Below, one piece after another: positions 44,812 through 47,352 of a stretch of DNA of 64,000 nucleotides. The notes under the pieces were generated by a model. That model made no database searches. It was not told the origin of the DNA and saw only the letters and a list, made by a program, of their open reading frames with translations. The stretch covers positions 361,522 through 425,521 of the forward strand of contig CAZGEA010000001.1 in the NCBI GenBank assembly GCA_964524515.1, given 5' to 3'. This stretch comes from an uncultured Gammaproteobacteria bacterium. Its GTDB lineage: Bacteria > Patescibacteriota > Microgenomatia > UBA8517. Both the position numbers and the translations under genes were made by a program. Every line of letters starts with the position of its first letter. Within the stretch, counting starts at the first letter, position 1.

Positions 44812-47352
44812 ATGCCAAACGAAGTCGATTATCGTACACAAAGAGATGATTTAGTTCTAGCCGTCGGGGAATTTGCCTTTCTCGAAGATGAAAACGGAAG
44901 AGTTTTCGCCTTAGTTGGTCCACACCGCGCACCTGTTTCTGCAAACGAAAAAGTTGTAAAGTGGAATCTCACTAGTCGAAAATTTACACCAGTTTCAAAT
45001 TTTCCAGAAGGAATTCAATCCAACGCAGTTGCCAAGGAAAACGAATACATCGTTTTACACGATCCTGCACAAGATGATACAAAACCTCATCCAAATCAAG
45101 GAAAAACAGAAGCTGCACCATTAAAAACTGGAAACACTATAGTTTTAAATGGTCCTCTAAATTTTCCTCTCTGGCCCGCGCAAACATATGAGCTAATTTC
45201 AGCTCATCTTTTGAATCGAAATCAATATTTAGTTATCCTTGTCTACGATGAAGTTGCTACTGCAAAAAATTGGGATCAATCACAACATGGAGTTGCTCCA
45301 TGGATTGAGTTACCGACACCAGTAGTAGTCTCAAAGACAAATGATAATGACGCACCAATCGATCCGCCGGTTCAACCAGTGGTCGAGGCTAATTCAATAG
45401 CTAATCCAGTAAAAGGAATGGAATATATTATTCGAGGCAGCAAACAACTGTCTATATTTGTTCCACCTACTGGTGTGCTGGTAGTCAAAGATGATCAAGG
45501 AAAATATGTTCGTGATGCAGTAAGTCTAGAATTGCTTGAATACTGTATTTTGGTTGACGAAGAAGGCAATAAGCGCTTTGTTCGAGGTCCAAGAATAGTT
45601 TTCCCTTCACACTCAGCAGAAAGATTTGTTGTAGAAGGTGGTATTAAAGTTTTTCGAGCATTGGAACTAGGTGGCGCACGTATGGGTATACATGTCAAAG
45701 CACTTGTTGCCCACACAGACGAAACAGGTAGGGATTGGAAAGCAGGCGAAGAAGGTTTCATCACAGGAGACCAAATGCCTTTCTTCTTCCGAACTGAAAA
45801 AATGGCAGTCATCTCCTATGGGATTCACACGATTTACTACGCGGTATCAATACCAGATGGTAAGGCAAAATACGTACTAGACCGAAACAATGGGCCAATC
45901 AATCTTATCAAAGGTCCAGCTATGTATCTGCCAAATCCAGTCAATGAAGTTTTTGTTCAAAGAGTGTTAACAGCTGAACAAGCTTCATTATGGTTCCCAG
46001 GCAATCGAGAAGTACAATCGTACAACGCAAATTTGCGAGAGACTAAAGATTACGAACGCACCTATCTTGAGACTACTAAAGCTGAAGAGGATACAAACAT
46101 AAGAGTAGCAGGAGCAGAAGCATTCGCTGCGAATACTGTATCTCGTAATACACAATTCACACCTCCAAGAACTGTAACTCTTGAAACTAAATATGACGGA
46201 GCAGTAAAGATAGAAGTTTGGCCCGGATACTCTGTCTATATACAAAAGGCAGATGGATCTGGTGAAGTTGTCTTAGGTCCAACAGTTCGTTTCTTGGAAT
46301 TCCACGAAACTCTATTGGCAATGCGTCTTTCGACAGGGAGACCAAAATCTGACGAAAGCCCATTTAAAACTGTATATTTACGATATGCGAACAATCGCGT
46401 TACTGATCTTGTAGATGCTGAAACAAGCGATTTTGTTCCTATCCGTTTGCAGTTAGTTTTCTTGGTCAATTTTGATCTTGAACAACAAGAAAAATGGTGG
46501 ACAGTCGAAGATTACATCAAACTGTTATGCGACAGAATGCGTAGTCTTGTCCGAAGTATTGTAAAACAATACACCATTGACGAATTTATGAACGGTCCAG
46601 CAGAGATCATTCTAGATAGTGTTCTGGGTGTAGAAGACGAAGATGATTCGAGCCGACCAGGATACAGATTTACCGAAAACGGAATGGTTGTATTCCAAAT
46701 GGAAGTCTCGAATGTAGAAATTCAAGATCGTCAAATTGGTAGCATGCTGATTCTGTCACGCCAATCAGCAGTTCGAAGTGCTATAGAAATAGCCGAACAG
46801 ACGAGGCAACGTGAGTTCACTGAAGTAATCGAAGGAATCAAACAAGCAATTGCGCGATTTATATCCGAAACTACAGCAGAAAACGATCGTCTGGCTTTAG
46901 AAGCAGTAGCACGCCAAGGACAATTACAGGTTGCTCGAGTTGAGGCAGATCTAGAGTTATCTAGATCAAAGCAAGATTTGGAAACTGCACAGCAGACAAT
47001 CGAAGATCTGGCAACTGCAGCAAATCTTGCACGCAGATTACGAGAAGCACAACAAAGACAAGGAATTGCAGATGCAGATCAAGTTCGGCACCTTGCTTTA
47101 TTGCAAGCTGAAACAGATGCTGCTGTAGCTAAGATTCAGGCAATCACACCACAAGACATTGCTATCTTGCGACAAATTATTGACACCAATCTTTTGTCCA
47201 GTATGGCAGAACACATGAGCGGACCTGCGTTACTTCGAGGAATGAGCCTTCTTGAGATCGGTCAAATGATCCTCAATGGCACAGGCCTTGAAAACATTTC
47301 TAAATTGCTAATCCCAAGATCAGCAACAAATAATGAAGATCAAGCTAACTAA
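44812..47352 (+). CDS. Major vault protein (MVP) homolog, 846 aa
   Basis: Strong SD (aaggag) 9 nt upstream. Repeat-domain signatures G-P-x-x-Y-x-P-x-x-x-V-E-V-V (KGPAMYLPNPVNEVFV; RGPRIVFPSHSAERFVVEG). The shoulder region aligns to human MVP (VVLGPTVRFLEFHETLLAMRLSTGRPK...DLVDAETSDFVPIRLQL versus [26 protein letters not shown]...DVITIETADHARLQLQL). Long C-terminal coiled coil and cap-ring-like end. Confidence 0.75.
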   Translation: MPNEVDYRTQRDDLVLAVGEFAFLEDENGRVFALVGPHRAPVSANEKVVKWNLTSRKFTPVSNFPEGIQSNAVAKENEYIVLHDPAQDDTKPHPNQGKTEAAPLKTGNTIVLNGPLNFPLWPAQTYELISAHLLNRNQYLVILVYDEVATAKNWDQSQHGVAPWIELPTPVVVSKTNDNDAPIDPPVQPVVEANSIANPVKGMEYIIRGSKQLSIFVPPTGVLVVKDDQGKYVRDAVSLELLEYCILVDEEGNKRFVRGPRIVFPSHSAERFVVEGGIKVFRALELGGARMGIHVKALVAHTDETGRDWKAGEEGFITGDQMPFFFRTEKMAVISYGIHTIYYAVSIPDGKAKYVLDRNNGPINLIKGPAMYLPNPVNEVFVQRVLTAEQASLWFPGNREVQSYNANLRETKDYERTYLETTKAEEDTNIRVAGAEAFAANTVSRNTQFTPPRTVTLETKYDGAVKIEVWPGYSVYIQKADGSGEVVLGPTVRFLEFHETLLAMRLSTGRPKSDESPFKTVYLRYANNRVTDLVDAETSDFVPIRLQLVFLVNFDLEQQEKWWTVEDYIKLLCDRMRSLVRSIVKQYTIDEFMNGPAEIILDSVLGVEDEDDSSRPGYRFTENGMVVFQMEVSNVEIQDRQIGSMLILSRQSAVRSAIEIAEQTRQREFTEVIEGIKQAIARFISETTAENDRLALEAVARQGQLQVARVEADLELSRSKQDLETAQQTIEDLATAANLARRLREAQQRQGIADADQVRHLALLQAETDAAVAKIQAITPQDIAILRQIIDTNLLSSMAEHMSGPALLRGMSLLEIGQMILNGTGLENISKLLIPRSATNNEDQAN

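Follow-up and report, generated by a model that had tools for sequence, protein, structure and literature searches.

The function of the eukaryotic vault, the cage formed by major vault protein (MVP), has been unresolved for forty years. Prokaryotic MVPs have already been noted (Daly 2013, PMC3762200), and MVP-like proteins were described in Saprospira grandis (H6L4P8), Microscilla marina (A1ZGE7) and Enhygromyxa salina (A0A0C2D5V5) (Sokolskyi 2019). Two phage MVPs, those of Caudoviricetes ctOa11 and ct2Ri15, have also been published (Santos 2023), while Burroughs and Aravind 2016, as relayed in PMC13404743, tied bacterial MVP/Band-7 homologs, operon noncoding RNAs and RtcB to RNA repair. In human vaults, an inter-subunit pocket for NAD+/ADP-ribose comprises R504, K506, R507, P508, H509, R511, L517, D521, F522, W545, P565 and K573 (PMC12280208). 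Here we analyse an MVP-homolog gene on a stretch of 64,000 nucleotides (positions 361,522 to 425,521 of contig CAZGEA010000001.1, assembly GCA_964524515.1; hereafter the window) from an uncultured, ultra-small bacterium of the Candidate Phyla Radiation (CPR). No paper in the literature searched pairs MVP with CPR bacteria or Patescibacteria.

Our reading of the locus is that the gene is a resident, functional member of the MVP family, gained horizontally long ago, whose product would self-assemble into a cage. To this statement as a whole we assign a probability of about 0.55. Its foundation, membership of the MVP family together with residence in a bacterium, is close to certain.

The ORF product and its match to MVP

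The open reading frame (ORF) runs from an ATG start to a TAA stop and encodes an acidic protein of 846 aa (94.6 kDa, pI 5.05). The Pfam model MVP_shoulder (PF11978; cutoff 25 bits) matches residues 527-639 at 88.8 bits (E 3.5e-25), with positions 2-118 of its 118 aligned, and neither the Band_7 nor the flotillin model was matched in the Pfam scan. When phmmer was run against PDB sequences, the only real matches were rat, human and rabbit MVP (E ~3e-13), in alignments spanning residues 473-789. In the alignment to human MVP, the last repeat is placed against human residues 476-511, LSTGRPK (506-512) pairs with LSAGRPK, AETSD with IETAD, IRLQLVFLVNF with ARLQLQLAYNWHF and SNVEIQDRQ with SVDVQSVEPVDQR. 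NCBIfam returned no match for the protein or its neighbours. The protein has no transmembrane segment (maximum 19-residue Kyte-Doolittle hydropathy 1.0) and lacks a signal peptide or lipidation signal, and it is predicted from these properties to be soluble.

An AlphaFold2 model of the monomer, built on 56 family sequences, has a mean predicted local distance difference test score (pLDDT) of 73 and exceeds 90 at best in the shoulder (88-95). With Foldseek, the entire model aligns to rabbit, human and rat MVP in the PDB (E 2e-32 to 4e-26), the alignments to full-length chains extending over 850-950 columns. Its N-terminal half matches the murine MVP R1-R7 crystal structures 3gf5 and 3gnf (E 3e-12, TM-score 0.54). 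Structures of the SPFH proteins flotillin, prohibitin, HflK/C, stomatin and erlin match the model at only E ~1e-7 (to 1e-4), such that the MVP fold matches outrank them by 25 orders of magnitude. Judged by sequence and predicted fold, the ORF product is a full-length MVP homolog and not a generic SPFH protein. An identity limited to flotillin or Band-7 was ruled out by the MVP_shoulder match and the full-length MVP fold match.

An earlier note on this DNA had proposed that the protein contains all three parts of eukaryotic MVP, and the shoulder score, the AlphaFold model and the full-length Foldseek match bear this out. The blocks that it had aligned between this shoulder and human MVP are all present and aligned by phmmer. 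It had also described an N-terminal repeat signature. Here the N-terminal half does contain four degenerate GP..(Y/F/V).P...(E)V.V motifs, at residues 36, 114, 259 and 368, of which the last (GPAMYLPNPVNEVFV) is the closest to human GPLEYVPSAKVEVV, and the R1-R7 fold match agrees with them, but the Vault_3 and Vault models fall below their gathering thresholds. Because these repeat models are sub-threshold, the N-terminal repeats are assigned from structure prediction and from relatives that pass Vault_3. Thus the Pfam search that the note had suggested succeeded for the shoulder and fell short for the repeats; the outcome that it had set against its own proposal, a match to flotillin or Band-7 models only, did not occur, and the structure prediction that it had suggested for the monomer yielded the end-to-end MVP fold match. 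Of the approximately 200 aa of C-terminal coiled coil that it had described, 137 residues are predicted to be helical and the remainder is a 70-residue tail of low model confidence.

In the model, the parts are predicted to follow one another in the same order as in eukaryotic MVP, with a beta-repeat array, an SPFH-like shoulder, a cap helix and a short tail (Table 1). Many G, P and Y residues of the repeat array are invariant across the family, while the helix and linker that follow the array form the most variable segment, whether compared across the family or between strains (the ortholog described below shares 63% aa identity here). According to DSSP analysis of the model, the cap-helix equivalent is a single unbroken predicted alpha-helix, and it is the least conserved region of the family (mean column conservation 0.37). 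The family consensus of the tail retains a motif resembling P..L.GG.S..D....LL.GT.L; from the model, the tail is a possible equivalent of the cap ring.

Compared with rat, human and rabbit MVP (PDB 4V60, 9BW5, 9Z4W), the window protein is of similar length (846 versus 861-893 aa), is likewise acidic and predicted to be soluble, and shares the part order, the LS(T/A)GRPK keyhole loop and the full-length fold match. By contrast, the identity in structural alignment is ~17%, sequence similarity is found only from residue ~473 on, extra disordered or helical inserts are present at 159-199 and 399-461, and the cap helix is shorter. Most of the basic NAD+/ADP-ribose pocket residues are also replaced. 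Further, no vault RNA, TEP1/TROVE or PARP4 partner was found near the gene.

Table 1 Coordinates of the MVP-homolog gene, its parts and other features of the window
Feature	Position	Strand	Residues	Basis
MVP-homolog gene	44812..47352	+		ORF; MVP_shoulder match; MVP fold match
Expression signals of the MVP homolog	44716..44802	+		Promoter-like site and Shine-Dalgarno sequence
N-terminal array of small beta-sheet MVP-type repeat domains	44842..46005	+	~11-398	AlphaFold, Foldseek
Disordered insert in the repeat array	45286-45408	+	159-199	AlphaFold secondary structure, pLDDT
Helix (399-425) and disordered linker	46006..46194	+	399-461	AlphaFold
Last repeat, R9-like, with keyhole loop LSTGRPK (506-512)	46195..46368	+	462-519	Vault_3 sub-threshold; pLDDT >90
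SPFH-like shoulder	46369..46728	+	520-639	PF11978; pLDDT 88-95
Cap-helix equivalent	46729..47139	+	640-776	DSSP; pLDDT 70-75; aligned to human cap helix
C-terminal tail, short helices, low model confidence	47140..47349	+	777-846	AlphaFold
Intrinsic terminator hairpin, then T-run	47364..47420	+		RNA fold
Variable islet between ydjM (40114-40689) and secA (48099-50879)	40750..48055	.		Synteny comparison
FAD_binding_4 gene	41284-42657	+		
Gene for 209-aa RGG/zinc-finger protein	44052-44681	+		
Pseudopilin clusters	10675-20359 and 26784-29658			Prepilin-type N-terminus (GFTLIELL)
Gaps of 450-690 bp	50880-51433, 31254-31900, 29659-30150, 25665-26151, 3761-4446			
Partial tRNA cut by the window end	63947-64000	-		Rfam, 31.9 bits

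Bacterial residence, strain comparison and genomic setting

The Logan assembly of SRR12762304 matches 14.5 kb around the MVP gene with 1 mismatch. In the assembly of SRR27787828, an MVP ortholog of 89% identity is followed by the same 191-aa gene and then by SecA. Eukaryotic contamination or a mis-join was ruled out by these two independent assemblies and by synteny. The window SecA shares 65-69% identity with its counterparts in Woesebacteria, Microgenomates and 'Patescibacteria group', which makes the host a CPR bacterium of the Microgenomates, probably a Woesebacteria-like one. The window has a GC content of about 33-34%, and its other genes are ordinary bacterial ones, encoding type IV pilus/type II secretion system (T2SS) components, FtsEX, RF2, SecA, SerRS, LysRS, GreA and a Cu-ATPase.

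The MVP gene is preceded by the Shine-Dalgarno (SD) sequence AAGGAG at 44797-44802, 9 nt 5' of the ATG, and by a promoter-like site, TGGATA-17-TATTAT with an upstream TG, which is a consensus match only (11 such sites seen versus 10.7 expected by chance). Downstream, the terminator hairpin has a folding energy of -23.2 kcal/mol (z = -3.94), and 0 of 200 shuffled sequences were equally stable. The gene would be transcribed alone. These results sustain what the earlier note had said about the setting of the gene: that it has its own strong SD and terminator, that it is intact (a full ORF, under the constraint described next), that the other genes of the window are typically bacterial and, from the independent assemblies, the Microgenomates-type SecA and the synteny, that a eukaryotic contaminant is unlikely.

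Against the 89% ortholog, the ratio of nonsynonymous to synonymous substitution rates (dN/dS) is 0.24 for the whole gene and drops to 0.11-0.12 in the R9/shoulder region, and the gene is intact in both strains. Thus the gene is under purifying selection and, as its sequence indicates, functional. Divergence between the strains forms a mosaic. Across window positions 45605-47400, compared with 901-2690 of the locus L002, blocks of 65-90% nucleotide identity alternate with blocks of 99-100%, while the first ~790 nt of the gene and the region upstream are 99-100% identical. The flanks of the gene are 96-100% identical at the nucleotide level and SecA is 99.7% identical at the amino acid level. 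Synonymous divergence (dS) is 0.10 for SecA versus 0.26 for MVP and reaches 0.73 in single MVP blocks. Because dN/dS stays below 0.33 in every MVP block, the mosaic suggests recombination among diverged alleles and not positive selection, which implies that a pool of MVP alleles exists in the population.

The gene lies in a variable 7.3-kb islet that also encodes DinB_2, FAD_binding_4, a beta-CASP RNase, an RGG/zinc-finger protein and a 191-aa protein with two transmembrane segments. In a related genome, GCA_040959955.1 (L166), the anchors MgsA, a spermine-synthase-like (SpeE-like) protein, SecA, YdjM, HhH-GPD and HD are present at 39-71% identity, and its SecA-YdjM segment contains no counterpart of any islet gene of the window. 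In a Woesebacteria genome (L168, 12824-22300), the same position is occupied by genes for a serine recombinase, a primase/DUF3987 protein, a P4 cII-like protein, GP3_package proteins and a HigB toxin. Within the islet itself no att-like repeats, integrase, phage structural gene or tRNA target was found, nor do att-like repeats, an integrase or a tRNA border it.

The GC content of the MVP gene, 0.413, is the second highest in the window, and its GC content at third codon positions (GC3) is 0.277 versus a host mean of 0.204. Its relative synonymous codon usage correlates with that of the host at 0.79, inside the host range. The simplest reading of these data is that the gene was acquired horizontally long ago into a variable islet, with subsequent amelioration and fast divergence; the acquisition would predate the shift of its codon usage to a host-like pattern. 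The islet is compositionally heterogeneous, as the FAD_binding_4 gene has a GC content of 0.258 (0.251 at second codon positions).

Directly 5' of the MVP gene lies the gene for a basic protein of 209 aa (pI 9.2). It contains two treble-clef zinc fingers (PF23477, CxxC...CxxC), each following a tract rich in RGG/GGFGG, and a lysine-rich tail, and its halves are encoded by a 108-nt direct repeat with 81% identity. From its sequence, this looks like a nucleic-acid-binding protein, and together with the beta-CASP RNase it is suggestive of RNA biology.

Elsewhere in the window, the two pseudopilin clusters include PilB-like (T2SSE) and PilC-like (T2SSF) genes and adjoin genes for large secreted or repeat proteins of 755 aa and 433 aa; together these are typical CPR surface machinery. 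The window also contains a match to the RTX family HemolysinCabind. In five gaps between genes there is neither an ATG-start ORF of at least 70 aa nor, even with a permissive threshold, an Rfam match; small genes or lineage-specific RNAs could lie there.

Family distribution and gene neighbourhoods

A word-indexed search recovered 58 full-length homologs at 31-39% identity, most with both Vault_3 and MVP_shoulder. Among 185,579 species-representative genomes we confirmed at least 506 MVP loci, a lower bound that corresponds to ~0.3% of species. Among the taxon labels of the bearers are Myxococcota, Bacteroidota (Cytophagales, Saprospiraceae, Microscillaceae), Vulcanimicrobiota, Riflebacteria, Wallbacteria, Chloroflexota, Sericytochromatia, Desulfobacterales, Gemmatimonadota, Spirochaetota and one Saccharibacteria-labelled metagenome-assembled genome. 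At least 282 IMG/VR viral contigs, many of 100-500 kb, encode a full-length MVP, and an exhaustive profile search gave 818 clusters (50% identity) with E <= 1e-30. Thus the MVP family is much larger than the literature states, extending to hundreds of bacterial species and phage contigs. The earlier note had regarded bacterial MVPs as known only sporadically, and it overrated the novelty of this gene, given these counts and the papers of Daly 2013, Burroughs and Aravind 2016 (as far as relayed in PMC13404743), Sokolskyi 2019 and Santos 2023. The window gene is a divergent member of a known and widespread prokaryotic and phage MVP family in a new, extreme host lineage, and by itself it reveals no new kind of system.

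In a neighbour-joining tree of 153 bacterial and viral homologs, the window MVP and its ortholog form the longest branch, with no close sister. The median identity of the window MVP to the others is 38%, versus 46% among the others. The same tree shows no recent donor for the window MVP, which is not nested among the viral sequences. The window protein is 31-41% identical to prokaryotic MVP-like proteins over 93-100% of its length and resembles them in its Pfam content, its family-invariant residues and its stand-alone gene without a conserved partner. It differs from them as the most divergent branch sampled, and its ultra-small, AT-rich CPR host is unlike the known prokaryotic hosts, which have large genomes and are often gliding or filamentous. 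The only other CPR-labelled MVP locus among the best 80 is on CAYRXD010000018.1 (L012, labelled Candidatus Saccharibacteria). This locus has a GC content of 48%, and its MVP shares 54% identity with Vulcanimicrobiota-type copies but only 39% with the copy in the window; it could represent an independent acquisition or a binning error. A CPR-specific MVP clade receives no support from this locus, as its MVP is no closer to the window copy.

To seek partners, the ORFs of 160 MVP loci were clustered all against all. No non-MVP cluster occurred in more than 7 of the 80 bacterial loci, and zinc-finger and beta-CASP genes adjoined MVP at no locus other than that of the window. In a Pfam census of the four nearest neighbours at ~42 bacterial loci, RNA-repair, TROVE, vWA and PARP families were not enriched; the only enrichments were Radical_SAM, the commonest family (11 of 150), and LepA, and these probably reflect lineage synteny, though Radical SAM may be a real association. 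In Riflebacteria/Moduliflexus-type loci the Radical SAM genes often form a pair on the opposite strand (L079, 6405-8954; L070, 10513-13202; L065, 5563-8084; and others). The MVP homolog, then, has no conserved operon partner.

A subgroup of the phage loci, on large IMG/VR contigs, shows a different context. In these loci (among them L131, L137, L139, L141, L142, L144, L146, L147 and L153, with MVP at about 8001-10430), a DUF2828 and DUF7788 protein is encoded just 5' of MVP, while NADAR, cREC_REC, Thg1, a nucleotidyltransferase-like protein, metallophosphoesterases, an exonuclease and an RNA ligase are encoded 3' of it. HAD_SAK_2 also occurs around MVP, and arrays of tRNA genes are located 3-8 kb upstream. 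The window protein and the phage MVPs (ctOa11, ct2Ri15 and the 282 IMG/VR contigs) are full-length homologs with 32-42% identity. Unlike many of the phage genes, however, the window copy has neither an RNA-repair/tRNA cassette nor surrounding phage genes. RNA ligase, Thg1 and NADAR were absent near the window MVP and were not among the best 25 of the 55 families matched in the 64 kb. Permissive RNA matches were at chance level only, inside the MVP coding sequence or at the terminator. The partial tRNA at the window end is the sole RNA-family match in the 64 kb.

Predicted assembly, possible role and rival explanations

The proposed cage follows by analogy from eukaryotic MVP and all solved SPFH assemblies, in which closed domes arise by lateral packing of the SPFH domain and the long helix after it. 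Like the window protein, the SPFH cage formers (flotillin, prohibitin, HflK/C, stomatin, erlin and QmcA) have an SPFH fold followed by a long helix, and the closed multimeric domes that they build are the basis for its suggested assembly; they are, however, membrane-anchored and lack the ~500-residue repeat array, whereas the window protein has no transmembrane segment. Because a lone helix of 137 residues would probably be unstable in a monomer, a ring or cage of high order is expected. Copies of the window protein would associate laterally through the shoulder and the long helix and so close a high-order ring or dome. The assembly may be a half-vault (39-mer), a whole vault-like cytoplasmic cage of ~95-kDa subunits or something smaller, and it would enclose or scaffold a cargo. 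On this analogy, we see the chances of cage assembly as evenly balanced.

The human NAD+/ADP-ribose pocket was mapped onto the window protein through the phmmer alignment. The most conserved patch of the bacterial family coincides with this inter-subunit 'keyhole' pocket. P511, K512 and F554 are invariant in 56 of 56 family members, N528 is kept in 55 of 56 and D574 in 53 of 56, and E/D566 is nearly invariant; the conserved pocket positions are homologous to human K506, D521, W545 and K573. The chemistry differs, as most of the basic residues are replaced, several by acidic ones (R507S, P508D, H509E and K573D relative to human). Since the inter-subunit site is conserved even so, a small-molecule or nucleotide ligand at the predicted subunit interface is plausible.

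Several observations weigh against a resident, cage-forming vault-like protein. Vault_3 (PF17795) scores 24.1 bits with a cutoff of 28.8 (residues 482-515) and Vault (PF01505) 14.9 bits with a cutoff of 27 (residues 292-314), and residues 240-280, 417-461 and 777-846 are weakly modelled. Only 4 of the 12 human pocket residues are conserved or similar (R510, K512, N528 and F554). Rfam, at gathering and permissive thresholds, and ARAGORN detected no vault RNA, Y RNA or tRNA-like RNA in the window. TROVE, TEP1, vWA, PARP and RtcB were not among the best 25 of the 55 families matched there, and PADLOC and PHROGs gave no match for MVP or its neighbours. The literature searched yielded no experimental report on a bacterial MVP and none of particles formed by one. 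Finally, a full 78-mer of the window protein would weigh 7.4 MDa, a very large investment for a CPR cell, and the real assembly may be smaller or different. Published cell volumes and vault dimensions suggest that one full vault would fill on the order of 1% of a CPR cell.

Other explanations of the gene must be considered beside a resident cage protein. One is that the MVP homolog serves as a scaffold that holds an RNA ligase, end-healing enzymes and a cognate small RNA and so mends tRNA or rRNA that toxins or phage nucleases have cleaved. This would fit the link drawn between bacterial MVP, operon noncoding RNAs and RtcB (Burroughs and Aravind 2016, in the form relayed by PMC13404743), the phage subgroup with its RNA ligase, Thg1, NADAR, cREC_REC, phosphoesterases, DUF2828/DUF7788 and upstream tRNA arrays, and the beta-CASP/RMMBL RNase and RGG-rich double zinc-finger protein encoded directly upstream in the window. 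In the 64 kb, however, RNA ligase, RtcB, TROVE-like protein, Thg1 and NADAR were not among the best 25 of the 55 matched families, no tRNA-like RNA or Y RNA was detected, and, compared with the RNA-repair MVP/Band-7 systems of that account, the window gene has no operon with an RNA ligase, end-healing enzymes or small RNA. With no RNA-repair family among the four nearest neighbours at ~42 bacterial loci and with the zinc-finger/beta-CASP adjacency unique to the window, we consider an RNA-repair scaffold unlikely. Somewhat less probable still is a phage-derived accessory ('moron') or conflict gene that arrived via a CPR phage and has a defence or counter-defence role, such as the sequestration of some component of the phage or the host. 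Such an origin would explain the strain variation, that is, the mosaic hotspot with blocks of 65-90% identity inside flanks of 96-100%, and it agrees with the full-length relatives encoded on at least 282 viral contigs, of which many span 100-500 kb, with the variable islet in which a relative carries a recombinase/P4-like element, and with the second highest GC content in the window. Yet the islet lacks integrase and phage structural genes as well as a tRNA target and att repeats, PHROGs and PADLOC were unmatched, and the window MVP forms the longest branch and is not nested among the viral sequences. Moreover, its codon usage is largely ameliorated, and the per-block dN/dS below 0.33 speaks for recombination of diverged alleles, not positive selection.

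The remaining two explanations concern the foundation of our reading. The shoulder does have the SPFH fold and matches structures of flotillin, prohibitin, HflK/C, stomatin and erlin at E ~1e-7, as might be expected of a generic membrane-microdomain scaffold of the flotillin type that is MVP-like in its shoulder only. We nonetheless regard this as very improbable given the 88.8-bit MVP_shoulder match with Band_7 and flotillin models unmatched, the N-terminal array of ~500 residues that matches MVP R1-R7, and the lack of a transmembrane segment or lipidation signal. That the gene is a eukaryotic contaminant, the product of a chimeric assembly or a decaying pseudogene is suggested by the fact that MVP is best known from eukaryotes and by a GC content of 0.413 against a window mean of about 0.34. 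This probability is close to negligible: two further independent assemblies reproduce the junctions, the gene is preceded by a bacterial SD and followed by an intrinsic terminator, its product shares ~17% identity with animal MVPs versus 31-41% with bacterial and phage ones, and it is intact in both strains with a dN/dS of 0.24.

Returning to a resident MVP-family protein that may build a cage, its role would be stress- or conflict-related sequestration or scaffolding. This suggestion derives from the spread of the family by phages, the RNA-repair cassettes in some of them and the recombination hotspot between strains, and it is put forward tentatively. Equally speculative is the wider picture in which CPR cells, a few hundred nm across, build vault-like cages, and in which a strain-variable, recombining locus implies conflict of an episymbiont with phages or hosts. 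If true, each 78-mer would have the mass of roughly three ribosomes and occupy on the order of 1% of the cell volume, prokaryotic vaults would be a real and ecologically important organelle-like structure, and the CPR cage would constitute a minimal vault system without TEP1, PARP4 or vault RNA.

What the locus adds to the family is a new and extreme host context: despite its reduced genome and ultra-small size, a CPR bacterium retains a 2.5-kb gene that is under purifying selection, at a locus that recombines between near-identical strains. The phage tRNA/RNA-repair and ADP-ribose-processing cassettes around MVP, in turn, echo the NAD+/ADP-ribose chemistry of human vaults. The importance of the finding would rise if cage formation were demonstrated, or if the mosaicism and the RNA-repair/ADP-ribose context in phages reflect a conflict function. 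A tractable bacterial or phage MVP homolog could show what the ancestral cage does.

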